From: Mobula hypostoma
Taxonomy: Eukaryota
DNA length: 64,000 nt
Assembly: GCF_963921235.1 (NCBI RefSeq)
Contig: NC_086097.1
Location: 82,462,001-82,526,000 of the forward strand
Direction: 5' to 3'
A model generated the notes under the pieces. It was given only the letters and a program-made list of their open reading frames with translations, did not search any database and was not told the origin of the DNA. Numbering within the stretch: position 1 is the first letter of the stretch; each line of letters starts with the position of its first letter. Shown here one piece after another: positions 7,866 through 48,713 of this stretch. A program made the position numbers and the translations under genes.

Positions 7866-7879
7866 AACTCAAGACGGTT

Positions 7880-15300: not shown

Positions 15301-15443
15301 TAGCCAGGGCATCAAAGGTTATGGTGAGAAGGCGGGGGAGTGGAACTAAATGGGAGAATGGATCAGCTCATGATAAAATGGCGCAGCAGATTCGATGGGC
15401 CGAATGGCTGACTTCTGCTCCTTTGTCTTATGGTCTTATGGTC
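12396..15443 (+). mobile_element. CR1 LINE, 5'-truncated, with near-complete but frameshifted ORF2
   Basis: APE motifs (YLNARS, ITETWL, GDFN, SDH) and RT motifs (NYRPVSL, SGVPQG, FADD); frameshifts near 14215, 14605 and 14885; (TCTTATGG)n tail; 7-bp TSD ttattca at 12389-12395 and 15444-15450. Confidence 0.95.
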
Positions 15444-18889: not shown

Positions 18890-19515
18890 TCTCTACACTG
18901 CAAAAAACAGGATCTTCTATTTGATTGCCACTTCCATTCTGACTTGTCTATCCTTATCTTTCTTTACTGTTGTGATGAGTTCAACCTCAAATTGGAGGAG
19001 CAACATATTCCATCTGGGTAGCCTCCAACCTGATGGCATGAACATCAATTTCTCCAAATTTTGGTATTATATACTCCCCTCCCTCCTTCTCTTTTTTTTT
19101 CCATTCCCCATTCTAGTTACACTCTCACCCTTCCTCTTCTCACCTGGCCATCAACTCCCTTTGATACCCCTCCTCCTTCCCTTTCTTCCATGGCCCACTG
19201 TCCTTCCTTTTCAAATTCCTTCTTTCTTCAGCCCTTTGCCTCTTCCACCCATCCCATCACAGCATTTCACTTCATGTCCCCCCCCAATCCACCCGCCTGC
19301 CCCCTCACCTGATTGCATTCATCACTTTCCAGCTTGTACCGCTTCCCCTCATTCTTATTTTAGCTTCTGCTGTCTTCCTTTCCAGTCCTGATGAAGGGTC
19401 TCAGACCAAAATGTCGAGCCTTTATTCCCGTCCATAGATGCTGCCTGACCTGCTGATTTCCTGCAGCATTTTGTGTGTGTTGCCCAAGATTTCCAGCATC
19501 TGCAGATTCTTGTGT
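18890..19515 (+). mobile_element. Older PLE 3' fragment with decayed hammerhead
   Basis: IFHLGSLQPDGMNINFS C-terminus; agtcCTGATGAagggtctcagaccaaaatgtcga at 19384-19417 (core G lost). Confidence 0.75.
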
Positions 19516-22008: not shown

Positions 22009-22257
22009 TAACTCTCAGCCTCTGCCACTACAGTCGAAGTCTTTTTTGCCCACCAAAAAAGTTTTACTTGTTTTGCATATTGAGTACAATTGGAGCATGT
22101 CTTTCTCTACATTCATTGTCTTGTTAATTCATTACAATATTCTACAATGTGTCAAAGACATGCATGTTTCCTGCTTATGCACCCATTTAAAAATTTGTTA
22201 TAGTGTCTGCCAGCAGCAGTACCCTAGACAAAAGTCCTTGTCCAGAAAGCTTTTTAA

Positions 22258-22730
22258 CATAGAAACATAGAAATCTACAGCACTTCACACGCGCTTCGGC
22301 CCACAAAGTTGTACCAACCATGTAAATTACTCTAGAAACTGCCTAGAATTTCCCTACCGCATAGCCCTCCATTTTTCTAAGCTCCATGAACCTATCTAAG
22401 AGTCTCTTAAAAGACCCTATCGTACCTGCTTCTGCCAATGTCACTGGCAGTGCATTCCATGAACCCACCATTCTGTGTGAAAAACTTACCTCTGATATCC
22501 CCCTTGCACCTACTTCCAAGAACCTTAAAACTATGCCCCCCCGCCCCCGTTAGCCATTTAAGCCCTGGGGAAAAGCCTCTGGCTAATCACACAATCAATG
22601 CCTCTCATCATCTTATAGACCTCTATCAGGTCACCTCTCATCCTCCGTCACTCCAAGGAGAAAAAGCCGCGTTCACTGAACCTATTCTCACAAGGCATGT
22701 TCCCCAATCCGGGCAACATCCTTGTAAATG
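22258..22730 (-). mobile_element. CR1 3' fragment
   Basis: Homologous to 23722-24200; catagaaacatagaaa tail. Confidence 0.85.
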
Positions 22731-23721
22731 TCCTTTTGTTATGGCTTCACTGAGGCTCACTGCATCTTCAAGCATGTGGTCTTGCATCTTGCAAAGTACC
22801 ACTCTGGCACATACACTGCATCTCTGAGTCATCACTGGAAGGTTGAGTGTCTCCTGCCACTCTTCTGAAGTCATCTAATGATTTCCAGCACTGGTTGCAT
22901 TGCCACTGACCCATGCAGATAAAACTGTTTCTCCAAGAGTGAGTTGGTCTTGAGCAGTCCCTTTTCGAGTATTTCTATTCATGCAGTTTTGAACATCTTC
23001 CTTGTTTTCTTTCCAATCCATAGTGTTTGCTCTGACATTCAAACATGGCACACTATAACGAAAGTAATTTGGTGCAATCAGTGAATTTATACCATTAGAA
23101 AACTATTGAAGATATGTTCTAAGCTTTGCACCAGAAGAGGAAAGAATTCTAATGTTGGGAAATTGGTTCTACTATCTGGCCTTACATTATCTCTCTGTCC
23201 CTTTTGTGGCCTGATTTTTTTTCTGCTTTTACAATCTTTCTGATGCTTTAAATATCTTGACCACTGATATATGTGCAGTATTGATTTTTAAAAAGCCTTG
23301 CCTAGTGTGATTGGCAGTGATCTTTAAAACCGTATCAGCCTGATGTTTCTTGAATGACCGGATATTGCTAACAAATAGACTACTGTTTAAACATTTGCAA
23401 AACCACCCTTTTCACATGTTACTCACCCCTTACCTGCCTGTCCCTCCAGTAAGGGAAGCTAAATGGTGTATAGGTTGTCTTGAAATTAAGCATCTTGGTA
23501 CATACAGTATAGGCAAACGAAGTCCTATAGTATGATGCCAAACCTGGAAAAGTAGCCCATGACTGTCAATTGTCACAGATTTCAACAAGGTTTTACAATG
23601 GGCACTGGAGATGAGCATTCAGGCGAGGGGAAATTTAGAAAATGAAAGAGAAAAAGACAAGAGAAAGTGCAGGATAGTGAAATGAAGAACCTTTATCTGA
23701 AATCACAGTATTCATATTAAG

Positions 23722-24880
23722 ACAGATAGAAACATAGAAACACAGAAAGCCTACAGCACAATACAGGCCCTTCAGCCCACAAGGTTGTGCTGAACATGTC
23801 CCTACCATAGAAATTACTAGACTTCCCCATAGCCCTGTAATTTTCTAAGCTCCATGAACCTATCCAAAGGTCTCTTAAAAGACCCTATCGTATCCACCTC
23901 CACCACCGTTGCCAGCAGCCCATTGCACGCACTCACCACTCTCTGAGTAAAAAGGTTACCCCTGACATCTCCTCTGTACCTACTCCCCAGCACCTTAAAC
24001 CTGTGTCCTCTTGTGGCAACCATTTCAGCCCTGGGAAAAAGCCTCTGACTATCCACATGATCAATGCCTCTCATCATCTTATACACCTCTATCAGGTCAC
24101 CTGTCATCCTCCGTCGCTCCAAGGAGAAAAGGCTGAGTTCACTCAACCTGTTTTCATAAGGCATGCTTCCCAATCCAGGCAACATCCTTGTAAATCTCCT
24201 CTGCACCCTTTCTATGCTTTCCACATCCTTCCTACAGTGAGGCAACCAGAACTGAGCACAATACTCCAAGTGGGGTCTGACCAGGGTCCTATATAGCTGA
24301 AACATTACCTCTCAGCTCCTAAATTCAATTCCACAATTAATGAAGGCCAATACACCATAAGCCTTCTTAACCACAGCATCAACCTGCGCAGCTGCTTTGA
24401 GTATCTTATGGACTCAGACCCCAAGGTCCCTCTGATCCTCCACACTGCCAAGAGTCTTACCATTAATACTCATATTTGACCTACCAAAATGAACCACTGT
24501 ACACTTATCTGGGTTGAACTCCAACTGCCACTTCTCAGCCCAGTTTTGCATCCTATCAATGTCCGACTGTAACCTCTGACAGTCCTCCACACTATCCACA
24601 ACACCTCCCACCTTTGTGTCATCAGCAAACTTACTAACCCATCCCTCCACTTCCTCATCCAGGTCATTTATAAAAATCACAAAAAGTAAGGGTCCCAGGA
24701 CAGATCCCTGAGGTACACCACTGGTCACCGACCTCCATGCAGAATATGACCCGTCCACAACCACTCTTTGCCTTCTGTGGACAAGTTAGTTCTGAATCCA
24801 CAAAGCAATGTCCCCTTAGATCCCATGCCTCCTTACTTTCTCAATAAGCCTTGCATGGGGTACCTTATCAAATGTCTTGC
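23722..24880 (-). mobile_element. CR1 LINE, 5'-truncated RT and 3' UTR
   Basis: SGVPQGSVLGP, FADDTK and RPHLEYC motifs in ORFs 24414-24764 and 23817-24305. Confidence 0.92.
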
Positions 24881-25774
24881 AGAATTATTTGATTATGCAA
24901 ATAGAAATAAATTATATCCGCTACAGAGATATGGTTATGAAGCAGCAAGATTGAGAATGAAATATTCGAAGATATTTAAGAAGAGAAATAAGAGATAAGC
25001 AAATGTACAGTAAAAGAAGGTAGGGTGGACCTGTTAATAAAGGTGAGGTTACTGAGGAAAATCAAGGTATAATTTGAGTCAAGCAATTTGAGTCAAGCAA
25101 AGAAACTGCAAGTGGCAAAATAAAATAGAGAGAATTATATATAAGCAGCTGAACACTAGTGGTAATGTTTGGCACTATGCATCAGGAAGCTGGTGTATTA
25201 TCTAATAAATGGAGGTGAGAGACATGACTTCTGTACATTATCTCCTCACTTTACAAGAATGAATGAATGAAAATAATTTTGGTAGGTAAAATTTCATGAA
25301 TTGAAACAATTGGTAAAATGCATTTTGGCCACTGTTTTGCAATGAATTCTAAGAGAGAGAGGAGAGTGGCATTATTTGTTGCAGAGAAAAATGGCTCAAT
25401 AAATCAAAATGTTACAGGGATTTATCCCTTATTAATAATGATTAGTGAGGCACAAAGAGAATCTGTATTTACTGACAGCACCTTTATTGGTTCAGTTCAC
25501 AAGCAAGTGAATTTACACAATCGAATACCTGTGTGCACACCTACTAAGTTTTCCTGACCTTCCATGAACAGTCAAAAAAGTAGAAACTGTAATACCCAGG
25601 AAAGGGGTCTCCGCTGGCCAGGTGCTCCTCTAATCTCCACATGTCCAACATAGGGCCCTCCACATCCGTGATGGTTGATCTCCAGAGAGCTGCTGCAGCC
25701 TGTGTACCCAAAATTTTTCATTTTTAGTCCTACCTTTATCAGATCAACCTCTGATGTTTCAATTTGTTTGCTCA

Positions 25775-25901
25775 AGAGAAAATCAGTAAATGCTGGAAAT
25801 CCAAACAACACACACAAAATGCTGGAGGAACTCAGCAGGTCAGGCAGCATCTATGGAAAAGAGTATAGTCGACGTTTTGGGCCAAAACCCTTCAGCAGGA
25901 C
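25775..25901 (-). mobile_element. PLE terminal segment with decayed hammerhead
   Basis: agtcgacgttttgggccaaaacccttcagcaggac at 25867-25901 plus the gatgctg...ccagca tail. Confidence 0.65.
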
Positions 25902-26063
25902 CCATCTGACTGACCTGTGTCAGTTCTCATTGGATGTAGCTCAGGGCTACAAGCAGTATTGTTTCATCGGCCTTGCCTTCAACTTTGTGCCTTAGGTGAT
26001 TTCTTTTGTTCCATTCAACTCCGACTGGTTCAAACCAGTCAAACCAGGTCACCCAGACACTAA

Positions 26064-27102
26064 GGCTATGCCCACACTACACCGGATAATTTTGAAAACA
26101 CCAGTTTCGAGTAAAAACGACAGGCGTACACACTAAGCCTTTTTCAAAATATCTCTGTCCACACTAACACGGATATTTGGGCGAATCTCCTCTACTGGGC
26201 ACGTGCAGGACACACAGAAAACACGTGAAGAGGAAACGGTATACTTAGTGCGCGTTTGTCCAGTTACAGAGTAGAAAAACTTCAAAGGAATTGCTCTTGG
26301 CTCTCGCGCAGGAGGACTTAAAACTAAAAAAAACAAACACTGGAGCGTATGGAGGCAACCGACAGGGAGTTCACGGACAGTGTGACCCGGCTGACGACGA
26401 ACATTGAAAAACTGACTAACTCTGTTGCATTAATAAAGCACCTTGTTAAATGTATAAAACATGTCTGCTTCAGTGTTATCTTGTATTTCCATACAACGTT
26501 ACACATCTATTGTCAGAGATGTACTTGCATAAATAGGTAAAGCACCTTCACACAAGCAAGGACAGAAAACAGGGCAAAGTGAGTATACTTATTTATTCAG
26601 TAAGCTATGGGTCAAAGTATTTGGTGAGTACATTTCTAACTCTTCTGACTTCAGTCTCGTTGCCATCTGTTCTGAAATTGTTAGGTTGTATGGAGTTTGC
26701 GTTCAAGACAACAATGAAATGCCGCGCTGCGGCCATCTGTTCCAGCACGTCATGACAGCGTTTTTAAATAGTCAAAAAATCTCACTTTACAATTTAACTC
26801 TCACGCCGTTCACACCGACTGCGCGTTATAACAGCCGTACGGCAGTGCTTGCACAGTACCAAGCAGAAGCAGAAAAAGCATTGTTGTTGTGGTGTTGGCA
26901 TGACAGCGTTTTTAAATCTCTCCGTTTACCCCATACACACTACAACGGATATTCGGCGTTTTCAGATTTATTCACTCTGGAGACCGTTTCTGAAAATCTC
27001 CGTTTTTGGGGGGTGAAAACACTGTTTCAGTGTGGACAGAAGGTCAAAACGAAGAGAAAAAGCTGCATTTTCCAAATTATCCGGCGTAGTGTGGATGTAC
27101 CC
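26064..27102 (+). mobile_element. Non-autonomous Harbinger element A
   Basis: TIRs ggctatgcccacactacaccggataattt and aaattatccggcgtagtgtggatgtaccc; TAA on both sides; coding relic MEATDREFTDSVTRL. Confidence 0.8.
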
Positions 27103-27105
27103 TAA

Positions 27106-27895
27106 GGCTACATCCACACTAGACCGGATAAATCCATAACCGAAGCTTTTTCTCTTCGTTTTGGCCCTCCGTCCACACTGAAACGGTCTTTTCCTCCCCC
27201 GAAAACGGAGCTTTTCTAAAATGCTCTCCAGAGTATTTAAATCTGAAAACGCTGGTTGGGCGTTGTAGTGTGTACGGGGTAACCAGAGGTTTTAAAAAAC
27301 CTGTCATCCCTTTCATCGGCGAAGAGACTATGGCTGTAGGAAATGTTTCCAGGGTGACCCCTCTGCAGGAGTGGGGAAGATGTGGTGGGGCCACCCGGGG
27401 ATCTGTGTGTCCGTATGTGTAGCTATTGCAGTGGCTGTGAGGCTGGTATTGTGGTGGTGAAAAGTACTGGGGGGGGAGCCATCACATTCCTCATCACTGC
27501 AAATCCTTCTGCAATAGAGTTAGTCAGTTTTTCAACGTTCGTCATCAGCCGGGTCACACTGTCCGTGAACTCCCTGTCGGTTGCCTCCATACGCTCCAGT
27601 ATTTGTTTTTTCAGTTCTAAGTCCTCCTGTGCGAGAGCCAACAGCGGTCCGTCGTTATGCAATTTCTTTTTAAGTTTTTCTAGTTTGCAACTGGACAAAC
27701 GCGCACCAAGTATACCGTTTCCTCTTCACTTGTTTTCTGTAGATGTGTCCTGCTGATGCCCAGTAGGAGGAGATTTGCCCAAATACCCGTTTTAATGTGG
27801 ACGGAGGTATTTTCAAAAATGCCTGATGTGGACGCCTATCGTTTTTACACGAAACCGGCGTTTTCAAAATTATCCGGTCTAGTGTGGACGTAGCC
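27106..27895 (-). mobile_element. Non-autonomous Harbinger element B (opposite orientation)
   Basis: TIRs ggctacatccacactagaccggataa and ttatccggtctagtgtggacgtagcc; flanked by TAA and TGA; coiled-coil relic AQEDLELKKQILERMEATDREFTDSVTRL. Confidence 0.8.
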
Positions 27896-27915
27896 TGAGC
27901 CTAACAAGATCACAG

Positions 27916-28069
27916 CAACACACATCAAAGTCGCTGGTGAACGCCGCAGGCCAGGCAGCATCTCTAGGAAGTGGTACAGTTGACGTTTCGGGCCGAGACC
28001 CTTCGTCAGGAATGACGTGAGTGAAGTGTGTTGCTTGAATTTCCAGCATCTGCAGAATTCCTCTTGTTT
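27916..28069. mobile_element. 154-bp inverted PLE mini-insertion with hammerhead core
   Basis: 12-bp TSD acaagatcacag at 27904-27915 and 28070-28081; minus-strand hammerhead core at about 27978-28010; plus-strand terminal 44 nt. Confidence 0.85.
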
Positions 28070-28658
28070 ACAAGATCACAGATTGCTTCTTCACACCTGC
28101 CATTTTACACAATAAGCAGTTTATTGGAGAATGGTCTCAGGTTTAGCAGATCATTAGCAGAAACTCCTTGCATCCACTTTCAATTGCTCTGAATGCTATC
28201 ACAGTGCACACAATGGCGGCTGGAAGGATAGTCTCATGAAATGGCCAGTTCCATTCCTGTTCACTGATTGTTGTTCTTTCTGGCCAACTAAAGGTAATCT
28301 GAAGAATCAAAGCCATTATCATTAACCTTTATAAACTGAATATCCATGAAATTGAGGAAGGAAAATGCTAAGATCTATTATTTAAGAATTGGCAGCAGGG
28401 CATTTAAATCATCATAAAAGGACTGTGCGGAGTTAACATAGATTTATGAAAGGGAAATATTTGAAATTGTAGCCATCAGAGTAGATGAGCGGGCTGCAGT
28501 GAATGTTTTGTATTTGAATTTGAAAAGGTCTTCAAAAATGTGCCACTTAAAGTTATTAAACAATAAACAAAAAGCAAAGATCATGCAGATGCTGTAAGTC
28601 TGAAGTAAAAACAGGAAGTGTTGAAAATACTCAGCCAGTCAGGAAAGAGTTATATTTA

Positions 28659-29295: not shown

Positions 29296-29856
29296 TTTAT
29301 AAAGAGGAATAGAGTTAACATTTGGGGTTAACAGCTTACCTCACTTCACCTGTGGAAGAGCGTACATAAGTTAATCCTTAAATTGTAGAGCGGTCACCCT
29401 TCTAACCCTTCCTGACCTGCCTTCAAAGTAGGAATAACCTTTGTTAAATAAGGAGATGAAAACTGCACAGATGTTGCAAGACTTCCGTGCTGGGTACTCC
29501 ACCTCTCTTGCAACGGAGACTTACATTCTTCTTGTCATCTTAATTCCTTGCTGTATCTGCATGCTAACTTTCAATAATTCTTGCACCAGATCTCTCTGCA
29601 CACCAGTGAAGTTTGAAGTTCAAAGTAATCATATTATCAAAGAACCTATATGTCTCCATATGCTACCTTGAGGGTTATTTTCTTACAGGTATTCACAGTA
29701 GAACAAAAAAAAGATAGAATCAAAGAGAAAATACACACAGACGAAGACTGACAGGCACCCGATGCGCAAATAAAATTAAGTAAATAAGTAAGGATTTGAG
29801 TTGTAGAGTCAGTGAATGTGAGTCCATAAACACAATCACTACTTAAATAATGAAGA

Positions 29857-30860
29857 CACGAGGAATTCTGCAGATGCTGGAAATTCAAGCGACATACATC
29901 AAAGTTGCTGGTGAACACAGCAGGCCAGGCAGCATCTCTAGGAAGAGGTACAGTCGACGTTTCGAGCCGAGATCCTTCGCCAGGACCAACTGAAGGAAGA
30001 GTGAGTAAGGGATTTGAAAGTTGGAGGGGGAAGGGGAGATCCAAAATGATAGGAGAAGACAGGAGGGGGAGGGATAGAGCCAAGAGCTGGACAGGTGATA
30101 GGCAAAAGGGATACGAGAGGATCATGGGACAGGAGGTCCGGGAAGAAAGACAAGGCGGGGGGGGGGGGAATGCCAGAGGATGGGCAAGGGGTATAGTCAG
30201 AGGGACAGAGGGAGAAAAAGGAGAGAGAGAGAAAGAATGTGTGTATATAAATACGTAACGGATGGGGTACAAGGGGGAGGTGGCCTCCTCTACTGTAACC
30301 CATTCTGATATGTCTATCCATGGCCTCCTCTACTGTAACCCACCCTGATATGTCTATCCATGGCTTCCTCTACTGTAAAGATGAAGCCACACTCTGGTTG
30401 GAGGAACAACATCTTATATTCCGTCTGGGTAGCCTCCAACCTGATTGCATGAACATTGACTTCTCTAACTTCCGCTAATGCCCCACCTCCCCCTTGTACC
30501 CCATCCGTTATTTATTTATATACACACATTCTTTCTCTCTCTCTCCTTTTTCTCCCTCTGTCCCTCTGACTATACCCCTTGCCCATCCTCTGGGTTTTTC
30601 CCCCCCTCCCCCTTTTCCTTCTCCCTGGGCCTCCTGTCCCATGATCCTCTCATATCCCTTTTGCCAATCACCTGTCCATCTCTTGGCTCCATCCCTCCCC
30701 CTCCTGTCTTCTCCTATCATTTTGGATCTCCCCCTCCCCCTCCCACTTTCAAATCTCTTACTAGCTCTTCCTTCAGTTAGTCCTGACGAAGGGTCTCGGC
30801 CCGAAACGTCGACTGTACCTCTTCCTAGAGATGCTGCCCGGCCTGCTGCGTTCACCAGCA
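29857..30860. mobile_element. Fold-back PLE insertion (two inverted 3' arms)
   Basis: Minus arm 29857-30283, plus arm 30281-30860; 16-bp TSD acttaaataatgaaga at 29841-29856 and 30861-30876. Confidence 0.9.
30779..30814 (+). ncRNA. Minimal type I hammerhead ribozyme motif, best-preserved copy
   Basis: Stem I agtc/gact; core CUGACGA (30783-30789); stem II gggu/gccc with cucg loop; GAAA; palindromic ACGU helix III; predicted cleavage after GUC at 30810. Confidence 0.8.
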
Positions 30861-30876
30861 ACTTAAATAATGAAGA

Positions 30877-31002
30877 GTCTTAATGAAGGGTCTCTGCCCA
30901 AAATGTCAACTGTTTATTCCCCTTCATTGATGCTGCCCGACCTGCAGAGTTCCTCCAGAATTTTGTGCGTGTTGCTTTGGATTTCCAGCATCTGCAGAAT
31001 CT
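30877..31002 (+). mobile_element. Older PLE terminal segment with decayed hammerhead
   Basis: gtcttaatgaagggtctctgcccaaaatgtcaactg...ttccagcatctgcagaat. Confidence 0.65.
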
Positions 31003-31712: not shown

Positions 31713-31727
31713 TAAAGAATACAGTTC

Positions 31728-32872
31728 CCAGTTCCTCCGTCTCCGCCGCATCTGCTCCCAGGATGAGGCTTTCCGTTCCAGGACATCTAAAATGTTGTCT
31801 TTCTTTAAGGATCGTGATTTCCCTTCCGCCGTCATCAATGATGCCCTCACCCGCATCTCCTCCATTTCCTGCACTTCGGCCCTCACCCCATCCTCCCGCA
31901 ACCACAACAGGGACAGAGTTCCCCTTGTCCTTACCTACCACCCCACCAGCCTCCAGATCCAGCACATTATCCTCTGCAACTTCCGCCACCTGCAACAGGA
32001 CCCCACCACTAAGCACATCTTTCCCTCTCCACCCCTCTGTTTTCCACAGGGATCCACGACTCCCTGATCCACACGTCCATCCCCACAGATCTCCCACCCG
32101 GCACTTATCCCTGTAAGCACAAGTGCTACACCTGCCCCTACACCTCCTCTCTTGCTACCATTCAGGGGCCCAAACGGTCCTTCCAGGTGAGGCAACACTT
32201 CACTTGTGAGTCTGTTGGGGTCATCTATTGCATCCGGTGCTCCCGGTGCGGCCTCCTCTGCATCGGTGAAACCCGACGCAGATTGGGGGACCGCTTCGTC
32301 GAGCACCTCCACTCTGTTCACCTTAACAGACAGGATCTCCCGGTAGCCACCCACTTCAAATTTGCTTCCCATTCCCATTTAGATATGTCCATACATGGCC
32401 TCCTCTACTGCCATGATGAGGCTAAACTCAGGTTGAGAAGCAACACCTCATATACCGTCTAGGTATTCTCCAGCCCCTTGGTATGAACATAGAATTCTCC
32501 AACTTATGGTAATTCCCTCCCCCTCCCTTCTCCTATCCCTATTTCTCTCTGCCCCCTTCCCCAGCTGCCTATCACCTCCCTCATGGTTCCGCCTCCTTCT
32601 ACTACCTATTGTGTTTTCCCCTATTCCTTCTTCACCTTTCCTGCTTATCACCTCCCTGCCTCCCCTCCCCCACCCCTTTATCTTTCCCCTTACTGGTTTT
32701 TCACCTGGAACCTACCAGCCTTCTCCTTCCCACCCTCCCCCCACCTTCTTTATAGGGCCTCTGTCCCTTCCCTCTTCCATCCTGACGAAGGGTTCCGGCC
32801 CAAAACGTTGACTGATGGTTTCCACGGATGCTGCCCGACCTGCTGAGTTTCTCCAGTGTGCTGTGAGTGTTG
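31728..32872 (+). mobile_element. PLE (second subfamily) 3' portion, frameshifted
   Basis: QFLRLRRICS, RVPLVLTYHP and GVIYCIRCSRCGLLCIGET motifs; mutated hammerhead at about 32778-32813; 15-bp TSD taaagaatacagttc at 31713-31727 and 32873-32887. Confidence 0.9.
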
Positions 32873-33500
32873 TAAAGAATACAGTTCATATCTAACTGGC
32901 GACTCGCAGTCTGCTACCAGTGAGGAGGCTCAACTATTTGTAAAAGTAACTTTTAAGTTGCTGGATTGTTGTAAGATACTAATTATTCTTTAGTAGTCAG
33001 TGTACTGCCTGATTCCAATTAGCGTAGTTGATTCTTGTTATCTGTTTCCTGCAACATTCTGGTAAGTTGTATCAAACTTTTCCTTCAGTTAACTTTGAGT
33101 GAGCAATAAATGTCAGTAACGCCCACATTGCAAGAGAGAGAAAGATCATGTTTTGCATATGATGCAAATGTGTGGGCTGAAATATTAACTGTGTAATCAT
33201 TTCAAACACATACCAATGCTTCAGTATTCAAAATTAATTGCTCACTAAAAGAAACAATTCAAAACAATAAGCAAGAATACATGGAATCATGTTCATATGA
33301 CAGGTAAAGTAATTTGACAACAAGCAGATTATTGAAGACAGGAGACACCACAGACTGTACAGGCGAGAACCTGGAGCAACAAACAAGATGTTTGAGGAAA
33401 ACACAGGATCAGGCAGCATCTGTGGGTGAACATGGGCATCTGATGTTTCAAGACAAGACTTTTCATCTGGACTTGACCCAAAACATCTATTGTCCATTTC

Positions 33501-34293
33501 TCAAATAATAATGAGGCAGCCCACAGAGAAGAAGTCATCACCCTGACACAGTGGTGTCAAGAAAACAACCTCTCCCTCAATGTCACAAAAACAAAGGAGC
33601 TGGTTGTAGACTACAGGTGGAATGGAGACAGGCTAGCCCCTATTGACATCAATGGATCTGAGGTTAAGAGGGTGAACAGCTTTAAGTTCCTCAGCATAAA
33701 CATCACCGAGGACCTCACGTGGTCTGTACATACCAGTTGTGTGGTGAAAATGGCACGACAGCATCTTTCACCTCAGACCATTGAAGAAGTTTGCTGTGGG
33801 CCCTCAAATCCTAAGGACTTTCTACAGGAGCACAGTTGAGAGCATCCTGACTGGCTGCATCACTGCCTGGTATGGGAACTGTACTTCCCTCAATCACAGG
33901 ACTCTGCAGAGAGTGGTGTGGACAGCCCAGCGCATCTGTAGATGTGAACTTCCTACTATTCAGACATTTACAAAGACAAGTGTGTAAAAAGGGCCTGAAG
34001 GATCATTGGGGATACGAGTCACCCCAAACACAAAATGTTCCAGCTGTTACCGTCCAGGAAACGGTATCGCAGCTTAAAAGCCAGGACCAGCAGGCTGTAG
34101 GACAGCTTCTTCCACACGGCCATCAGACATGGTGACAAAACTGTATTTCCATGTTATATTGACTATCCTGTTGTACGTACTATTTACTATAAATTACTAT
34201 AAATTGCACATTGCACATTCAGACAGAGACGTAACATAAAGACTTTTACCCCTCTTGTATATGAAAAATGTAAGTAACAAAGTCAGTTAAATT
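33501..34293 (+). mobile_element. Rex1/Babar-like LINE, 5'-truncated
   Basis: WCQENNLSLNVTKTKELVVDY and ESILTGCITAWYGN; homologous to 4657-5388; splits an old PLE-tail fold-back (33335-33500 and 34295-34335). Confidence 0.8.
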
Positions 34294-34441
34294 CTTTCTA
34301 TAGATGCTATCTGACCTGCTGAGTTCCTTTAGTATCTTGAGAACGCACTGTTTACTAGTACGTTGACACATCATTCACTTATATGTGCAGGAGTGTTGTG
34401 ATCCTATTGTTTCAAGAGTCATGACAAATATTATTAATTGC

Positions 34442-35105
34442 AGCAACACACACAAAATGCTAGTGAACGCAGCAGGCCAGGCAGCATCAATTGGAAGAGG
34501 TACAGTCAACGTTTCGGGCCGAGACCCTTCGTCAGGACTAACTGAAAGAAGAGCCAGTAAGAGATTTGAAAGTGGGAGGGGGAGGGGATATCCGAAATGA
34601 TAGGAGAAGACAGGAGGGGGAGGGCTGGAGCTAAGAGCTGGAAAGTTGATTGGGAAAAGGGATATGAGGCTGGAGAAGGGAGAGGATCATGGGATGGGAG
34701 GCCTAGGGAGAAAGGGGGAGGGGAGCCCACTATAGTGAGAGGGACAGAGGGAGAAAAAAGAGAGAGAGAAAAGGGGGGGGAGAGAGAGAGAGCAAGAGAG
34801 AGAGAGAGAGAGAAATAAATAAATAAGGGATGGGGTACAAAGGGGAGGTGGGGCATTAGCGGAAGTTAGAGAAGTCAATGTTCATGCCATCAGGTTGGAG
34901 GCTACCCAGACGGAATATAAGGTGCTGTTCCTCCAACCTGAGTGTGGCTTCATCTTGACAGTAGAGGCAGCCGTAAACGAAGGGTCTTGGCCCGAAACGT
35001 CGACTGTACCTCTTCCAATTGATGCTGCCTGGCCTGCTGCGTTCACCAGCATTTTTTATGTGTGTTGCTTGAATTTCCCGCATCTGCAGATTTCCTCGTG
35101 TTTGC
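34442..35105. mobile_element. Fold-back PLE insertion
   Basis: Minus arm 34442-34973, plus arm 34977-35105; 12-bp TSD attattaattgc at 34430-34441 and 35106-35117. Confidence 0.9.
34504..34539 (-). ncRNA. Minimal hammerhead ribozyme motif (GUU triplet)
   Basis: agtc-CTGACGA-agggtctcggccc-GAAACGTT-gact on the minus strand. Confidence 0.75.
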
Positions 35106-35871
35106 ATTATTAATTGCCAGTAGTTTACTAACCAGCTGAACAGTCCTTATTTCTCCTCTGTTTTTGTCTAGCATATACTTTGGAACTTTTATTGCTCCCT
35201 GGATCCCAATGACAGCAAACCCAGTGCAATACCAGAGAATTAAGAATGAACAATAAGTGCTGCCTCAGTGATGACTTTGTGACCTGTGAATGAATAGAAA
35301 CAAAACTGGTAAATTCAATCAAACCTGCAAAGTCCAATTCACATATCCTCAAAGAAAGGAGTGCAACTATAAAACAAGGAGTTTTTAAAAATCCTTGTAG
35401 CATGTCCTTTATAACTTGCTGAATAAATATTTCTAATTTTAATTTTCTTTTTATATTTACATAACTCCACTAATAGAGTAATAGTGTGCTTCACAGGAAC
35501 GGTCTGATAAAAAGGCAGCATGAATCCTTTTGGATGCATATTTTGAGTAAATGTTATGCCTTCACAGCCCATTGCAAAATTAAAAGTTAGAGTTGCAGAT
35601 GAATGAATCGTCCGTCACAGAAATCAAAGGCAGGGGAATGGATTCTAGTTCACCCCATGTTTTTTCTATGTTCCTTGATGTTCTGTACCCAATTCCTAAT
35701 AAGCCTGAATTGCTATCTATTTGCTATCCTTTTTCTACCACTTCGCTGACTTTACATGCATATGGTATTTCCTCAGATACCCTTTTAATATAAAAGCATC
35801 ATGCAGACATAGATCTGAGCTATCTAGCATTAATGCTGTGAAGCTAACTTCCTTGTGTACATAAAACCTCC

Positions 35872-38635: not shown

Positions 38636-40027
38636 AACAGACATTTCCTTCTTGGTTGGTGTCCACCTGAGTTCCTTATTAAGCTTATTTTATTGTTCTA
38701 TTTGGAATTGAATTAAGAGTTGTAGGAACCAACACTTGACAGTTAAGTAAAGACAATCTATGATGTGATCAAAGAAATAAATACTGAGTAGCAGTGAAAC
38801 ATTGTATGATCTCTTAAATTTGAATTGTAATTATTTATTATCAGACCAAGCCTTTTTTAATGAAAAATATTAGGGATGCACTCTTTTATCAATCACTGCT
38901 GTTGCTCAAGTTATCAGATGCCCTAAGTTACAAACGAACAAAAGCATACTGTGTGTATGATGAGACACAGTTATTAATCTTCAGGCCACCTGACATCTAT
39001 TAGGCAGCAAGCCAAGCACACCAGGGGAAAGTGTTGTGCAGTTCAAAACCCATGATCTACCTTTCTTGTGTATATAAAGAGCTTTTAGGCAGTCATCTGA
39101 AAGAATGTTTTATCTTGCCACAAAAGCACAATAATAATTTTTTTTTCCCAGTCTTTTAAGTATTTCTGTCTTCAGCTTCTTCTCCTCTGCTGTCAGATTT
39201 AGGAACCAGACACCTCTTTCACCTACTCTTCCTAGTTCTGTTGCCATATCCTTAATCCTATCTCTTCCAGTATTGCCACTGTAGCATTTATTTTTTCACT
39301 TATCACAGACTGCATTTCTTTTTTGCCATCTCGTCACTATTTATTGTTGCATTTTTAAAAATTACTATTAGCCTCAAGCAAGCAAGGAATTTAATTGTTC
39401 TTGGGTATATATGACAACAGACTACCCTAAATGTGAATCTGAAGTATGTTGGAAAGTTCTGAGGATATGAAGGGCACTTTAGTTGTAGTTGTAGATTTGT
39501 TCCGCACTCTGTTTCGACCATCCACACATTATGCCCAGCATACTGATTTCAAGTGACATGATGCAAAGACCTTCGCAAACATAGAGATTTGTGGCTTTTA
39601 CAAGCTATCTACAACAGCCATTACATTCAATTAATTTGCACACTGCTACTCTGACCAGGAAAAAATGCACTGAATTCCATAGTTTTTATAAGCAGTTATC
39701 GGAGACATTGGTGCAGCAATGGCTCCTGAACTAACTAATGTGTTCATTCAGGTTTTCCAACATTCCTTTCCCTGAAACTGGTGTCAGTTGATCCAAATGA
39801 CTGCAGGAAGTAGCATGTCTATAGTTACTCCGAAACAGTTCACTTTGTTTGTGAAGGGACTCGTAAAGGCCATTAACTGAAGGCATAGCGCGCATACCTG
39901 GTAATCAGAAAGAAGTGAGGTTAACCCTGCAAGTGTTGGGAACATTCTGCAGGTCACACAATGTCTATGAAAGGAGAAGTAGAGGCAATGTTTCAAGGCC
40001 ATGACATTTTGTCGGAAGGAGAAGTTA

Positions 40028-41170
40028 GTCATGGTCATAGTCATACTTTATTGATCCCGAGGGAAATTGGGTTTTGTTACTGTTGCACCAACCAAGAATA
40101 GAGTATAAATATAGCAATATAAAACCATAAATAATTAATTAGTAATATGTAAATTATGCCAGGAAGTAAGTCCAGGACCAGCCTATAGGCTCAGGGTGTC
40201 TGACCCTCCAAGGGAGGAGTTGTAAAGTTTGATGGCCACAGGCAGGAATGACTTCCTATGACGCTCAGTGTTGCATATCAGTGGAATGAGTCTCTGGCTG
40301 AATGTACTCCTGTGCCCACCCAGTACATTATGTAGTGGGTGGGAGATGTTGTCCAAGATGGCATGCAACTTGGACAGCATCCTCTTTTCAGACACCACCG
40401 TCAGAGAGTCCAGTTCCATCCCCACAACATCACTGGCCTTACGAATGAGTTTGTTGATTCTGTTGGTGTCTGCTACCCTCAGCCTGCTGCCCCAGCACAC
40501 AACAGCAAACATGATAGCACTGGCCACCACAGACTCATAAAACATCCTCAGCATCGTCCGGCAGATGTTAAAGGACCTCAGTCTCCTCAGGAAATAGAGA
40601 CGGCTCTGACCCTTCTTGTTGACAGCCTCTGTGTTCTTTGACCAGTCCAGTTTATTGTCAATTTGTATCCCCAGGTATTTGTAATCCTCCACCATGTCCA
40701 CACTGACCCCCTGGATGGAAACAGGGGTCACCGGTGCCTTAGCCCTCCTCAGGTCCACCACCAGCTCCTTAGTCTTTTTCACATTAAGCTGCAGATAATT
40801 CTGGTCACACCATGTTTTAAAGTTTCCTACCGAAGCCCTGTACTCAGCCTCATCTCCCTCGCTGATGCATCCAACTATGGCAGAGTCACCCGAAAACTTC
40901 TGAAGATGGCAAGACTCTGTGCAGTAGTTGAAGTCCGAGGTGTAAATGGTGAAGAGAAAGGGAGACAAGACTGTGGAGCCCCAGTGCTGCTGATCACTCT
41001 GTCGGACACACAGTGTTGCAAGCACACGTACTGTGGTCTGCCGGTCAGGTAATCAATAATCCATGACGCCAGGAAAGCATCCACCTGCATCGCTGTCAGC
41101 TTCTCTCCCAGCAGAGCAGGGCGGATGGTGTTGAACGCACTGGAGAAGTCAAAAAACATGACCCTCACAG
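40028..41170 (-). mobile_element. Rex1 LINE, 5'-truncated, frameshifted RT
   Basis: VRVMFFDFSSAFNTI, LSPFLFTIYTSD, KFSGDSAIVG (decayed xxDD) and KKGQSRLYFLRRLRSF; (ATGACT)n tail. Confidence 0.9.
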
Positions 41171-42408: not shown

Positions 42409-45400
42409 TCATCTAAAGTCTGCTCGCATTGGGGTTATATATTCAATCCATTTATTCCAGATTTGATAAAATGTTTCTTTTTGAGTTCTCAGGGAGTAAG
42501 TCAACTTTTCCATTTTAAATATTTCCAAGATAATTTCGTACCAATCTTCTAATGTAGGTGGTATTGGATTTAGCCATTTTCTAGTGATTGATTTCTTACT
42601 TGCCACTAAGAGGGCCTGCAGCAACTTTATATCTTCCTTCTGTTCAAGGATCAATACATGCCCCAAAGAGAGCATCTCAAAGTTCAGAGGTATCTGGGAC
42701 CTAAGTACCTTAACAAATGTTCTATGAATACCTTCCCAAAATAGACTTAATTTAGGGCAATCCCAGAAAATATGAAAATGATTTGCCTCCTTGGAGCCGC
42801 ACCTTCTCCAACACATCACATTTGTATCTTTATATTTTTCCTGATATGGGGTCTTGAAGTATCTTATAATGTTTTTCCAACAATGTTCTCTCCAAGTCAA
42901 AGAATTAGTCGAGGACCATTGAAAGCTGCAGATTTTCCCCCAAGCCTCCTCTGAAAGTACCAACCCCGCTTCTTTCTCCCACTTCTCTTTAATATACAGT
43001 GTATTTACATTTTTAGCATGGGAGAGTGCATTATATAGGTGAGAAACTGATTTACTAGGTATTGAACTGCAAGCTGAATTCAGAATCTTGAAAAATTCTA
43101 ATTCTACTGTTGATAGGTCTGTACATCTACAACTCTGGTTAACATAGTTTCGTATTTGAAGGTACCTAAAAAAGTCATTATGTTCTAGGCCATGTTTGTC
43201 CTGCAGGATTTGGAAACTTTGTAATACTCTTTTATCTATAAATGAGAGGTAGGTTGTAAGACCTTTCTTTATCCATAGCTCAAATCTTTTATCTCCTCTG
43301 TTGGGAAGGAATTCGGTATCATATGCACACCATCTAAAGAGTTTTAACATGTTATTAATTCCACATGAATTAACCACCTTCTGCCATACTTTTAATGTAA
43401 GATTTATCCAAGCATTATTAAATTTTTCCAACTGGGCCATCAATCCTTTGTCAGCTATTGAGGCCTGAAGAGGAAAACTGTCAACTAATCCAAATTCTAT
43501 TTCCTTCCATCTAGCCTTATATTCCCTATTACACCAATATAACAGAGGGGTTATCTGTGAGGCATAAAAATAATTTCTCAGGCAAGGAAGAACCATACCT
43601 CCTCCTTCCTTCCCTAACTGTAAGGTGTTATATCGAATTCTAGGTTTCCTTCCTTGCCAAATGAAGCGGGAAATCCATTTGTCCCATTCCTTGAATTGAT
43701 TATCATCCACCTCCACTGGTAAAGTACGGAAAAGATATAATAACCGAGGAAGAATATTCATTTTTATAGTATTTATCCTTGAATTTAAACTTAAAAAGGG
43801 GATAAGATTCCATCTATGCATATCTGCTTTTATCTCTGAGATTAATGGCCCATAATTTACCTGTGACAGTGTTGAAAGATCCTTCGGCAGGGTTATTCCT
43901 AAATATTTTAATGATTTAGCTTCCCACTTCAGATCGTATATATCCTGCAATTTTTTGGATGGTGTATAATTTAGGGACATAACCTGCGTTTTCTTTACAT
44001 TTATTTTATAACCTGATATTTTCCCAAAGTCATCCAACAGTGTAAACAATCCTATAAATGATTTTTCTGGTTCACTCAGATAGACCAAAACATCATCTGC
44101 GAATAACGCCACTTTCTGTTCAATCCCTGCCACCTTGATACCTTTTACGATTTCGCTCTGTCTTATTAGTTGGGCAAGTGGTTCAATATATAGCGCAAAA
44201 AGGAGAGGAGAAATTGGGCATCCCTGTCTAGTGCCTCTCTCTAAAATGAAGGAGTCAGAGAGGTCCCCATTTATCTTAATTCGGGCTGTAGGGCTGTCAT
44301 ATAGAGTCTGAATTACTTTAATAAACCTTTCTTGAAAGCCGAATCTTCCTAACACTCTGTACAGGAATGCCCAACTAACCGAATCAAAAGCTTTCTCAGC
44401 GTCCAATCCTACTACCATTGTCTCTGTCTCGTTCTTATTAACCTGTTCTAATATGTGCAGAGTTCTCCTTATGTTGTCCTGTGTTTGTCTTTGTTGAATA
44501 AATCCAGTCTGGTCTAAATGGATTAGGCCAGGTAAAAGCTTTTCCAATCTGTGCGCTAATATAGATGTAAATAGTTTGTAATCTAAATTAAGAACACTAA
44601 TTGGCCGATAATTGCCACATTCTAGTTTATCTTTACCCTCTTTAGGAATAACTGAAATAATCGCTTCTCTCCAGGAAGGTGGAGTTTCTCCTCTCTGCAA
44701 GATCCAATTAAAGGTGTTAAGTAGTAATGGGGCTAATTGTGTCTTCAGGGACTTGTACCACTCTGAGGTAAACCCATCAGAACCCGGGGACTTTCCAGCC
44801 TTTAACCTAGAGATGGCCACGTTCAGTTCTTTGACAGTTACTGGTTCTAATAAACTTTCATTTTGTAAATCTGTAAGTTTAGGTAGATCTAAAAAATTCA
44901 ATACACTGTCTATATAGGGCTCATTGGGGGCCCGGGGTTGGGAGTACAGCTCTCGATAATATGTTTCAAAACTCTCTTGAATTTTCCCTATTGTACTCTC
45001 CACAAGCTTTGTCTTTGCATTCTTTATTTTATGAATTGTATTGTCTGCTTGTTGTTTTCGTAATTTATATGCTAATAATCTAGCTGATTTACCTCCTACT
45101 TCATAATTCTTTTGTCTCAGGTAAAGAAAATTTCTTTGAGTTTCCAACGTATAAATATCATCAATTTCACTTTGCAATTTCCTAATTTCCTGTTTTCGAT
45201 TTGAATTACTTTTGTTGCTATCTACAACTTGAAGTTGTTTTAATTTTCCTTGAAGGTCTGCTAATTTTTGTGCATTGATTTTTTTCATGTGAGTAGTAAT
45301 GGAAATAATTTTCCCTCTCAGTACAGCTTTCAATGTATCCCATAAAATCACTGGTGATGTTTCTCCCGTGTCATTAAGGTCTAGATATTCTTTGATTTCT

Positions 45401-46197
45401 CCCCTTAATCTCTCCATTACTTTCGGGTTATTGAGTATATGTGAGTTTAGCCTCCATAGTGTTTTCCTCATTTTCCTTTCCAGGATTAGAGACATAGAGA
45501 CTGGGCTATGATCCGACAGATCAATTGTTGCAATATTACAGTTTTTTATCCTGAGTCTATCTGTAGTAAAGATAAAGAAATAGTCTATCCTTGAATAGGC
45601 TGAATGAGGGAAAGAGTAATATGTATAACCTTTACTAGTAGGGTGTAATTCCCTCCAGACATCTATAATTCCCAACTCCTCCATCAATGAATTCACGTTC
45701 CGAGTCAGAGGTTTATTCTGAGTAACTATTCTTGAAGAATCTAATATAGGATTTAATCTAATATTAAAATCCCCTCCACAAATTACTACCCCTCGAGAAC
45801 TGACCATTAGGTCAAAAATGTGTCTATAAAATGACCATTCACTACCTGGAGGAGCATAAACATTCAGCAATGTTATTTCTGTACCTTCTATTCTTCCTGT
45901 GATTTTTACAAACCGTCCTTCTTTGTCTCTAGTCTCTGAAATATGTTCATAATTAAGAGTACTTGATATTAAAGTAGCTACCCCTCTTTTGTGACTCAAT
46001 TTATATGATGAATAAAATACATGCTTAAAGCCCATTCTTTTTAATTTTCCATGTTCAGATTGGCTCATATGTGTTTCCTGGAGGAAAGCTATTTGTGCCC
46101 TCTCTTTTTTCAATTTAGACATAATCTTATTTCTTTTAATTGGATTCAAAACCCCATTAACATTATAGGAAATTATTTTTACCAATTCAGTTTGCAT
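42409..46197 (-). CDS. L1 ORF2p (APE endonuclease, RT, C-terminal Cys/His domain), 1262 aa, intact
   Basis: SYNVNG, LQETH, GGDFN, SRIDYF, SDH; YRPISVLN, QGCPISP, FADD; CWRRC...HFHIFWDC. Confidence 0.97.
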   Translation of the reverse strand: MQTELVKIISYNVNGVLNPIKRNKIMSKLKKERAQIAFLQETHMSQSEHGKLKRMGFKHVFYSSYKLSHKRGVATLISSTLNYEHISETRDKEGRFVKITGRIEGTEITLLNVYAPPGSEWSFYRHIFDLMVSSRGVVICGGDFNIRLNPILDSSRIVTQNKPLTRNVNSLMEELGIIDVWRELHPTSKGYTYYSFPHSAYSRIDYFFIFTTDRLRIKNCNIATIDLSDHSPVSMSLILERKMRKTLWRLNSHILNNPKVMERLRGEIKEYLDLNDTGETSPVILWDTLKAVLRGKIISITTHMKKINAQKLADLQGKLKQLQVVDSNKSNSNRKQEIRKLQSEIDDIYTLETQRNFLYLRQKNYEVGGKSARLLAYKLRKQQADNTIHKIKNAKTKLVESTIGKIQESFETYYRELYSQPRAPNEPYIDSVLNFLDLPKLTDLQNESLLEPVTVKELNVAISRLKAGKSPGSDGFTSEWYKSLKTQLAPLLLNTFNWILQRGETPPSWREAIISVIPKEGKDKLECGNYRPISVLNLDYKLFTSILAHRLEKLLPGLIHLDQTGFIQQRQTQDNIRRTLHILEQVNKNETETMVVGLDAEKAFDSVSWAFLYRVLGRFGFQERFIKVIQTLYDSPTARIKINGDLSDSFILERGTRQGCPISPLLFALYIEPLAQLIRQSEIVKGIKVAGIEQKVALFADDVLVYLSEPEKSFIGLFTLLDDFGKISGYKINVKKTQVMSLNYTPSKKLQDIYDLKWEAKSLKYLGITLPKDLSTLSQVNYGPLISEIKADMHRWNLIPFLSLNSRINTIKMNILPRLLYLFRTLPVEVDDNQFKEWDKWISRFIWQGRKPRIRYNTLQLGKEGGGMVLPCLRNYFYASQITPLLYWCNREYKARWKEIEFGLVDSFPLQASIADKGLMAQLEKFNNAWINLTLKVWQKVVNSCGINNMLKLFRWCAYDTEFLPNRGDKRFELWIKKGLTTYLSFIDKRVLQSFQILQDKHGLEHNDFFRYLQIRNYVNQSCRCTDLSTVELEFFKILNSACSSIPSKSVSHLYNALSHAKNVNTLYIKEKWEKEAGLVLSEEAWGKICSFQWSSTNSLTWREHCWKNIIRYFKTPYQEKYKDTNVMCWRRCGSKEANHFHIFWDCPKLSLFWEGIHRTFVKVLRSQIPLNFEMLSLGHVLILEQKEDIKLLQALLVASKKSITRKWLNPIPPTLEDWYEIILEIFKMEKLTYSLRTQKETFYQIWNKWIEYITPMRADFR

Positions 46198-46559
46198 TTT
46201 TCTCTAGTAGAAAAAAAGCACTCTCCTTTTCTAACCAAACAGTAAGCAATCCCTTCTCAACAGTAAACCAAGACATATAACCACACCCTAGACATTTCTG
46301 AACGTATAACATTTGAAAATTTTTCCCGACTTCCCACAGTGAGGCCTGAGCACCGACCTGCCTCAGTTCAGAGGGATAACCTCTATCTTCACCCTGTGTT
46401 AGAGGGCCCTCAGCAGTTTGAATAATCATAGAGAATTTTCTCCTATTTATGTCTCGACCATATTGCTATCATTCAAGTTATTCCGCCTAGTTTATTTTCA
46501 GTTACCAGTTTTCATTTTACTTTTAAGTCCGATTTACTCTTTTCAGTCATTTCTCTTAA

Positions 46560-47546
46560 TTAATCTGTATTCTCTGTACATTCGCGTCTGAATATTTGCA
46601 GCTTTTCCTTGTAGTTTGACACTCTGGTTCGAGTGGAGCGTCCTCGCCCCACTAACTGCCACGACTTCTGCCGAATCCTCTCCAGAAGCGACTCCGGTTG
46701 GGTGATAACTTTAATAGGTAGTCCCCGGTCCGCCAGGTCCAACGTTGCCTCCTCCACCGTAGCGTAAGTTTTTGTCCCTTCGTCGTAAAAGACTCTCAGC
46801 CGAGCTGGATACAGAGTCTGGAATCTGATGTTGTTTTCCTTCAGGACTCTCCGTGTTTCCGTATATTCCTTCCGTCTGGCAAGAATCCCCGGTGCGTAGT
46901 CGTGGTCTAAACTGATTTTGCAGTTGTTCCACAGGAGACCTTTCTTTTGCCATGCTCTTTTAAGCACCTCTTCCTTCGTTCTGTAACTGAGAAATCTGAT
47001 CAGAATCGATCTGGGCTGGGTGCCTGCCGGAGGCTGTGGTGCCAACGCGCGGTGAGCCCTTTCTATCTGTAGGTCTTTTGCGGCCGGTATATCAAGGTTC
47101 TCTCTAAGCAGCTTCTCCACGAAGGGAATCATCAATCCAGGTTTACCTTCGGTTCCTTCAGGAACTCCGTAGATCCTCACATTTTCCCTTCTCGAGCGGC
47201 CTTCTTGATCTATTAGTTTCCACTGGAGCTGGTCTTGTAGCTTCAGCATTTCTGCTATCACTTCCTCGGCGTTTTGTAGCTTCTCTTCAATTCCAACAAT
47301 CCTCGCTTCGGCTTCATCTATCCGCGAGTTAGTTTTTACTATTTCTCCTTTAATATCTTCCAGCTGTTTGCTGTTACCTTGTCGGAACTCGCGAATCTCT
47401 CCGAGAATCAAAGACAGAGTCACCGATTCCCCCTCATTATCTCCGTCCTGGCTTGCCGTGGGGGAGCTAGGCCCGTCGCCTTGCTGCGTCTCATTATGTT
47501 TATCAGCCTTCGAAGCGGACTTTTTATTCTTGTTCTTAGACATCAT
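46560..47546 (-). CDS. L1 ORF1p (coiled coil, RRM, CTD), 328 aa, intact
   Basis: Coiled-coil heptads followed by EGRSRRENVRIYG, IERAHR, RFLSY and YPARL motifs. Confidence 0.95.
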   Translation of the reverse strand: MMSKNKNKKSASKADKHNETQQGDGPSSPTASQDGDNEGESVTLSLILGEIREFRQGNSKQLEDIKGEIVKTNSRIDEAEARIVGIEEKLQNAEEVIAEMLKLQDQLQWKLIDQEGRSRRENVRIYGVPEGTEGKPGLMIPFVEKLLRENLDIPAAKDLQIERAHRALAPQPPAGTQPRSILIRFLSYRTKEEVLKRAWQKKGLLWNNCKISLDHDYAPGILARRKEYTETRRVLKENNIRFQTLYPARLRVFYDEGTKTYATVEEATLDLADRGLPIKVITQPESLLERIRQKSWQLVGRGRSTRTRVSNYKEKLQIFRRECTENTD

Positions 47547-48482: not shown

Positions 48483-48713
48483 ATGAGTGTTTGTAGTATG
48501 TGAATAACATGGAGTTTCAACCCAAATAACTCCTCAAGCCCGTTTTTCATTCACTGTTGACTAATTATACAGTTCTGGTAATATTAGACACACAGATAGG
48601 ATGGCATGCAATGTTTCAAGCCCATTTACTGCAAACCTGGTCTATTTCCGATTGAGATTCTGCCCCATCAATTATAATGACTTACAGGAGATTCCATGCA
48701 GCGGAATAGTTTA

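Follow-up and report, generated by a model that had tools for sequence, protein, structure and literature searches.

A sequence at 30779–30814 in a 64,000-nucleotide stretch of the Mobula hypostoma genome (the window, throughout) has the letters of a hammerhead ribozyme and recurs on both strands around it, raising the question of whether such dispersed copies act on host transcripts or belong to the biology of a mobile element. The best explanation, and in our judgement a highly probable one, is that the motif and its copies are the hammerhead of the terminal repeat of an abundant Penelope-like element (PLE), truncated and mostly arranged head to head, likely with no cleaving role in host RNA.

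The motif reads AGTC-CTGACGA-A-GGGT(CTCG)GCCC-GAA-ACGT-C-GACT, letter for letter as the initial annotation gave it:

30779–30814, plus strand: complete minimal type I hammerhead motif, with helix I AGUC/GACU, core CUGACGA, A9.1, helix II GGGU/GCCC, GAAA, the palindrome ACGU and C17

This copy contains the core CUGANGA ... GAAA ... UH, a helix I of 5 bp including a wobble, a helix II of 4 bp with G10.1–C11.1 and the extra A9.1; in place of helix III, positions 15.1–16.1 form the palindrome ACGU, invariant in all four subfamily consensuses. The predicted cut falls at 30810/30811 (C17/G1.1). An Rfam scan returned no hammerhead family at E ≤ 5, as expected for a motif without helix III; Rfam hits to MIR6136 and MIR2593 were discarded as long palindromes scoring below the gathering threshold, and other CTGANGA..GAAA matches in the window (6161, 14535, 19972, 26391, 27548 and others) were rejected for failing the helix descriptor. 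Helix I is invariant and helix II nearly so across the subfamily consensuses, which thus carry no covariation evidence. The further claim that PLE ends bear minimal type I hammerheads with a palindromic helix III is upheld by the structure descriptor, by full-length elements and by Cervera and De la Pena 2014 (PMC4209133). We conclude that 30779–30814 is a real minimal type I hammerhead sequence at a PLE end, an association already known.

All 14 sites first reported for the window are genuine copies by blastn. With a profile derived from sampled copies the number of motif-spanning copies rises to 17, three decayed ones being added (9631 plus, 33473 minus, 40013 minus), and 12 Markov-simulated control windows gave no hits. 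By the structure descriptor six of the 17 are complete (C3 at 4581 minus, 11169 minus, 30783 plus, 34535 minus, 48848 minus and 50700 plus), against none in 200 first-order Markov copies of the window; 11 are broken or truncated. Four of the six carry U11.1, a G·U wobble instead of G10.1–C11.1. The copy at 34504–34539 (minus) is complete as had been proposed but not identical to that at 30779, having U17 (GAAACGT-T-GACT), and the one at 27978 is real but incomplete, its helix I being broken. Nor do the 14 sites amount to 14 independent events: the pairs 4550/4588, 29952/30779, 34504/34977 and 48817/50696 each lie inside one 10–16-bp TSD and thus represent four single head-to-head insertions, to which five of the six complete motifs belong, while the 11138 and 27978 copies each have their own TSD. 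In total, PLE sequence makes up 10.4% of the window, versus ~4.4% of 800 kb of evenly spaced genome samples. Apart from the insertion around 30779, the copies are as follows, with 5′ ends numbered here and below relative to C3 and 3′ ends relative to the cut:

4438–4667: palindromic hammerhead-only insertion with a 15-bp TSD; complete motif 4550–4585 (minus), minus arm beginning at −6 and plus arm at +2 (4590)
9631–9696, plus, and 39944–40013, minus: decayed motif-spanning copies from the profile search, not among the 14 reported earlier
11078–11900, minus: single 5′-truncated copy with an 11-bp TSD; complete motif 11138–11173, the only one in the window without an antisense arm
18928–19513, plus: PLE end of an older subfamily; motif at 19384, core broken
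25773–25901, minus: PLE end of an older subfamily, core broken
27903–28081 (outer coordinates approximate): stub from −2 to +68 (minus, 28011–27914) and inverted tail-only piece 28022–28069; 12-bp TSD, helix I broken
31726–32855, plus: older-subfamily PLE; ORF remnant 77% to the young family, motif 32778 with G12 to A
33397–33473, minus: decayed motif-spanning copy from the profile search, likewise outside the 14
34430–35117: head-to-head insertion with a 12-bp TSD; complete U17 motif 34504–34539 (minus), plus stub beginning at +3 (34977)
48704–50806: head-to-head PLE insertion with a 10-bp TSD; complete motifs 48817–48852 (minus) and 50696–50731 (plus), both U11.1; the plus arm codes for the RT thumb and GIY-YIG end (to 50399)

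The insertion that carries the 30779 motif spans 29857–30860, between the two copies of a 16-bp TSD:

29841–29856: left copy of the 16-bp TSD, ACTTAAATAATGAAGA
29857–30283, minus: inverted arm, with part of the 3′ UTR and a long tail (~+95 to +99)
30281–30378, plus: 40-bp unit × 2.5 where the two arms join
30339–30860, plus: sense arm of this dead PLE insertion, with the last GIY-YIG ORF codons, a pyrimidine-rich 3′ UTR, the hammerhead and a short tail (~+50 past the cut)
30861–30876: right copy of the 16-bp TSD
30876–31000, plus: adjoining PLE end of an older subfamily, hammerhead core broken (C3, G5, G12)

The hammerhead of the inverted arm (29952–29987) is broken (A6 to G), and the 3′ UTR haplotype of this arm is unlike that of the sense arm, the two differing at 24 of 368 positions. 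At 15 of 22 listed differences, each allele is also present in further copies, mostly in linked haplotypes, which suggests that two templates were used in one event; later gene conversion may also have produced the difference. In most other head-to-head pairs the diagnostic alleles are common to both arms. The 40-bp repeat at the junction likely arose by RT slippage. A plus-strand transcript across the insertion is predicted to fold into one long duplex, with 33 of the 36 bases of the 30779 motif paired with the antisense arm at a modelled probability of ~1.0.

On a genomic scale these numbers are unexceptional. The 3.48-Gb genome holds 38,213 exact copies of the 35-base motif, and the 176 motif-spanning copies in 140 evenly spaced 10-kb samples extrapolate to ~437,000 ± 37,000, so that the window, with 17 copies versus 8.0 expected per 64 kb (resampling P = 0.011), is only about twofold enriched—a somewhat PLE-rich yet ordinary stretch, whose flanks contain 40 motif-spanning copies in 200 kb. 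Among the sampled copies 24 are complete by alignment audit and 26 by the descriptor, 152 of the 176 being broken or truncated; complete motifs number ~65,000 genome-wide.

The source of these copies is a full-length unit of 3,513 bp with the motif at both ends, present in three loci (L021–L023), the three among 20 fetched genomic loci with long open frames that hold both the whole ORF and the motif at either end. It runs hammerhead, tail, 1,016-aa RT/GIY-YIG ORF (ATG 166 nt after C3), 285-nt 3′ UTR, hammerhead and tail, and in all three loci sequence continues at least 380 nt upstream of the 5′ hammerhead. As in EN+ PLEs, a single ORF encodes RT and then GIY-YIG (RVT_1 E = 3e-5 and GIY-YIG E = 1e-3, each below the Pfam curated cut-off), with the motifs DKG, YIDD, CX4CxxC and IYC..C..C..YIG, and the insertions show a partial tandem (pLTR), an inverted truncated copy, a one-sided tail and a TSD. 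Its cysteine motifs, CKRNKCYTC at 883 and VIYCVRCSRCGLLYIGET at 920, fit Neptune/Nematis features (PMC8557442), and on these motifs we class it as a probable Neptune-like PLE; the best database match of the protein is a bamboo shark protein, at 72%, which points to a cartilaginous fish as its likely host. The window frame 49479–50399 has a weak GIY-YIG match, and of its 239,356 first-look candidates in the genome the 129 scored are all 97–100% identical. One locus, L023:1-9200, is complex: it combines a near-double tandem with an inverted piece of 1.26 kb and additional stumps, a layout that suggests repeated insertion beside existing copies. On the minus strand of L021, the tail after the 5′ motif is predicted to form stems UGCUG/CAGCA and AGAUGCUG/CAGCAUCU around the +66 priming site; by eye, the shorter of these stems persists across subfamilies while its loop varies, and the word UGUUG precedes both priming sites. 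In this folding model the tail stems near +66 are a candidate RT-binding signal.

The rest of the window is rich in other elements. An apparently intact LINE, which we take to be of L1/Tx1 type, occupies 42409–47579 (minus), with a 339-aa ORF1 and a 1,264-aa endonuclease-RT ORF2 free of stops. A presumably Gypsy-like LTR retrotransposon lies at 51941–60259, its LTRs ~88% identical and containing GC-rich tandem repeats, its coding region split into several frames with integrase domains (Pfam). The element at 26060–27899, with ~370-bp terminal inverted repeats and an internal 109-bp palindrome (27050–27158), is likely a non-autonomous DNA transposon; the 27978 PLE stub adjoins its right end. LINE remnants at 12333–15349 (plus), 6383–7351 and 22256–24696, one with a 658-aa open frame and endonuclease domain, are presumably of CR1/L2 type. 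LINE 3′ fragments at 4660–5421, 33579–34294 and 40183–41052 match Pfam ALKBH8_N, likely a transposon-derived domain and not a host gene. There are also a 1-kb (CA)n microsatellite (60688–61700) and a 67/119-bp tandem repeat (2430–2763) related to 63385–63793.

Subfamilies keep the motif in common, yet within young copies it decays at the pace of its flanks. Identity among the four rough subfamily consensuses reaches 100% in helix I and the ACGU palindrome and 95% in the core, but it is 44% in the 45 nt upstream and 59% in the 14 nt that follow helix I; the tail from +48 to +75 is 90% conserved. The initial annotation had named, beside a lack of cleavage even as a dimer in Mg2+, a core no better kept than its flanks across genomic copies as counting against its proposal, and among young copies the core is indeed no better kept: in 67 of them, leaving out five subfamily-polymorphic positions, non-CpG changes number 10/663 in the core versus 61/2865 in the flank (p = 0.36). 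Older copies, 99 in number, retain the core somewhat better (99/972 changes versus 604/4564 in the tail, p = 0.009), a difference open to detection bias, these copies having been found with a hammerhead-requiring profile and their subfamilies lumped. CpG sites in young copies change at 4–12%, within and outside the motif. The youngest and most abundant subfamily has G10.1·U11.1 (41 of 67 young copies), which argues for loose selection on catalysis. Selection on active elements probably maintains the ribozyme, which decays after insertion, mostly at CpG.

Where copies begin and end gives hints about how the element replicates. Of 86 young-type copies, with ends called by gapped alignment, 82 reach at least 47 nt beyond the cut, and no copy ends within 3 nt of it; 3′ ends lie 47–120 nt past the cut, a few overrunning into the TSD, with peaks at about +66 and +103. 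In a set of 50 pairs (18 unselected and 32 from selected loci), all 43 that have a TSD of at least 9 bp combine a long end with a short one. Among 79 unselected young copies, 36 stand in head-to-head pairs and none tail to tail, with one adjacent direct tandem; an inverted neighbour lies within ~50 nt at 4 of 40 sampled genomic places. On the 5′ side, where counts rest on 1.66 Mb, 15 of 82 untrimmed copies end between −6 and +3; a stricter set has 17 of 75 there (from ~13 insertions, the two arms of a pair not being independent), versus ~1.4 expected from the local rate, and 1 of 75 at +24 to +33. About three-quarters of copies continue beyond −4. The hammerhead edge has 863 exact symmetric junctions genome-wide, compared with 145 for the cut site and 158 for a control position 17 nt upstream; this ratio may be inflated, the patterns being exact matches with unequal subfamily coverage. 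Of the 30 arms at 15 edge-junction loci, most stop between 0 and −5.

Much of this architecture has precedent. Like the metazoan PLE min-HHRs of PMC4209133, the motif is type I with a palindrome for helix III, an extra nucleotide between 9 and 10.1 and a short helix I, and it occurs in both terminal repeats, mostly solo in truncated copies and often as two close copies on opposite strands. It differs in its 4-bp helix II, versus 7–8 in the Schistosoma families, in the G10.1·U11.1 of its youngest subfamily, and in copy number, ~437,000 versus 4,000–9,000 reported for coelacanth and Xenopus by other methods; the searchable supplement of that paper names no cartilaginous fish. With the C-terminal EN+ PLEs Neptune and Nematis (Craig et al. 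2021, PMC8557442; Arkhipova et al. 2013, PMC3846280) the element shares RT followed by GIY-YIG, a CX2-5CxxC linker and CCHH-type cysteines, as well as partial tandems, an adjacent inverted 5′-truncated copy, a 30–40-bp tail at one end and TSDs. Those papers treat the tail as optional or often one-sided, whereas all 43 TSD-flanked pairs of the present family show it as one-sided; in their available sections the two papers do not mention 5′ ends piling up at the hammerhead’s first base. Head-to-head palindromes have been explained by self-priming on an antisense template (PMC3846280).

The closest biochemical parallel is the anole Poseidon element PAc (Frangieh et al. 2024, PMC11167929), whose protein both nicks and extends the two strands, initiating at two neighbouring internal sites and working on uncleaved RNA, and whose hammerhead cuts only with protein. 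As in PAc, the hammerhead here lies just upstream of two adjacent tail-defining RT starts, both strands appear to be extended and the RNA to be uncleaved, features read here from genomic copies. That each pair has one long and one short end corresponds to the one-sided tail already described (PMC3846280, PMC8557442) and agrees with the pair of RT starts in the anole element. Unlike PAc, whose ORF starts inside stem II and whose priming sites are AC-rich, the present element has an ORF that starts 166 nt after C3 and priming sites in GU-rich sense RNA; unlike Penelope/Poseidon, it has the CX2-5CxxC linker. Non-LTR retrozymes (bioRxiv 10.64898/2026.07.22.740005) likewise have a type I hammerhead, derive from the PLE pLTR and are present in a chondrichthyan, but they form head-to-tail arrays with a motif per unit, whereas here there is one direct tandem among 79 young copies and the window holds no array of at least two head-to-tail non-coding units each with a hammerhead. 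We found no paper on the hammerhead of this PLE family in cartilaginous fish, nor on a 5′-end pile-up at a hammerhead motif, though subscription journals, Repbase/Dfam or supplements may hold one.

Ends at least 47 nt past the cut, with none at it, indicate that the RNA template of integrated cDNA had not been severed at the cut site, and the pile-up at −6 to +3 that many templates likely began at the first base of the motif; judged from genomic copies, a transcription start at the motif edge is our preferred reading of the pile-up. All three full-length elements extend at least 380 nt upstream, so that none starts at −4 and the model has to include read-through or a template jump; in D. virilis, transcription starts not at helix I but 46 nt ahead of an intron that ends there (PMC2377424, PMC4209133), which counts against such a start. 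In the scheme that we propose, the element protein would nick both target strands and reverse transcription would be primed at two tail sites, one per strand, with the template RNA still uncut at the hammerhead; the two cDNAs would then be joined head to head. Many templates would likely begin at the hammerhead’s first base, and priming just downstream would run off the template 5′ end, giving hammerhead-only stumps. The ribozyme in active elements would cut slowly, as a dimer and with protein help, serving a step other than template preparation. A more detailed version, which we put forward tentatively and think less likely than not, takes the copies as a record of PLE insertion in vivo, in which RNA would start at the hammerhead’s first base and be copied uncut, each strand priming at its own site (+66 or +103). 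Run-off would then act like LTR strong-stop DNA, yielding stumps or jumping to the 3′ repeat to make a partial tandem that rebuilds the promoter. The hammerhead would be a 5′-terminal decapping switch or a template clasp and no processor of tandem transcripts; as a clasp it would hold two templates for an RT dimer, an option that the different haplotypes in the arms of the insertion at 30 kb would fit.

Other readings compete with this one. In the model of Cervera and De la Pena the hammerhead cuts element RNA to unit length, the ends ligate and RT rounds the circle, producing partial tandems with intact motifs; a circle rebuilds the motif, fits the partial tandems of all three full-length elements and accounts for core selection between subfamilies, but it has no 5′ end at −4 to explain the pile-up, ends are not enriched at the cut site, the point at which linear RNA left unligated would run out, and core mutants of the anole element still insert in vitro (PMC11167929), so that we think this model unlikely here. 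It is likewise improbable that the motif has lost cleavage altogether, active elements included, and persists as a piece of a promoter or RT-binding signal: the tail at +48 to +75, itself 90% conserved between subfamilies, the G·U at 10.1/11.1 in the youngest subfamily, the inactive rod predicted as the monomer’s best fold and the spread of Naiad PLEs without hammerheads (PMC8557442) would suit a non-cutting role, yet all catalytic positions, the extra A9.1 and the palindrome match the metazoan consensus, and the anole motif does cut with protein, C3G/G8C rescue marking this as RNA catalysis (PMC11167929). The pile-up may, moreover, reflect not a transcription start but RT stalling, microhomology at the hammerhead edge or a 3′ splice site, a possibility of some weight that we nonetheless doubt. 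All four subfamily consensuses have a pyrimidine tract followed by AG|TC, with the look of a 3′ splice site, the D. virilis intron ends at helix I (PMC4209133), the commonest junction has 2 nt of microhomology, and most copies run past −4. Against this, the 50 listed junctions have, by eye, no upstream exon common to their spacers; old subfamilies with different upstream sequence fold back at the same edge (a cluster of 11); the 10-bp palindrome at the cut site gives more microhomology, yet fewer junctions; and the arms stop mostly at −3/−4, a YA in initiator-like sequence. This YA sits in what we take to be the initiator-like consensus YYANWYY.

There remains the idea, advanced in the initial annotation, that copies scattered along a single long host transcript base-pair via ACGU and self-cleave, altering intron processing or releasing small RNAs. 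Six complete motifs in a window about twofold richer than expected lend it something, as do the weak in vitro cutting by Schistosoma minimal hammerhead dimers and trimers (PMC4209133) and the genome-wide total of complete motifs, among which rare cases are likely somewhere. Copies on opposite strands, however, cannot pair in a transcript, so only same-strand complete motifs count, namely two plus-strand motifs separated by 19.9 kb and four minus-strand ones lying within 44 kb. Five of the six are head to head, the 30779 copy being predicted to lie buried in a long duplex; most copies, in the window and in the genomic samples, are broken or truncated; and young copies lack extra core conservation. 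The active dimer (−14.7) is predicted to be 9 kcal/mol less stable than two inactive monomers (2 × −11.9) in a nearest-neighbour model, tertiary contacts lying outside it, and the anole motif needs the PLE protein for cleavage (PMC11167929). Among 60 non-repeat window frames of at least 55 aa (of 109, the other 49 lying in the LINE, the LTR element or the CA repeat) none is a Pfam-supported exon, a weak test that misses short exons. Four contig-only sequencing runs of uncertain kind, aligned to a full-length junction, had a depth in line with genomic copy number and, among the 15 of 135 joints shown, none of GT..AG type ending at helix I; they are uninformative on expression, start site or splicing. 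The proposal is thus unsupported and, we judge, very unlikely; the window copies, of which most intact ones are predicted to lie buried in hairpins, likely have no cleaving role in host RNA. Transcription of the head-to-head insertions, if it occurs, would yield long double-stranded RNA in large amounts.

A hammerhead in a PLE end is expected biology, and the geometry of the ends is the useful, mechanistic part. The role of PLE hammerheads and the making of tails, inversions and pseudo-LTRs are unsettled in the field (PMC8557442, PMC11167929), and a young family with intact ORFs, whose near-identical copies number in the tens of thousands, allows sharp, countable predictions—two priming sites, a 5′ end at the ribozyme and no ends at the cut.
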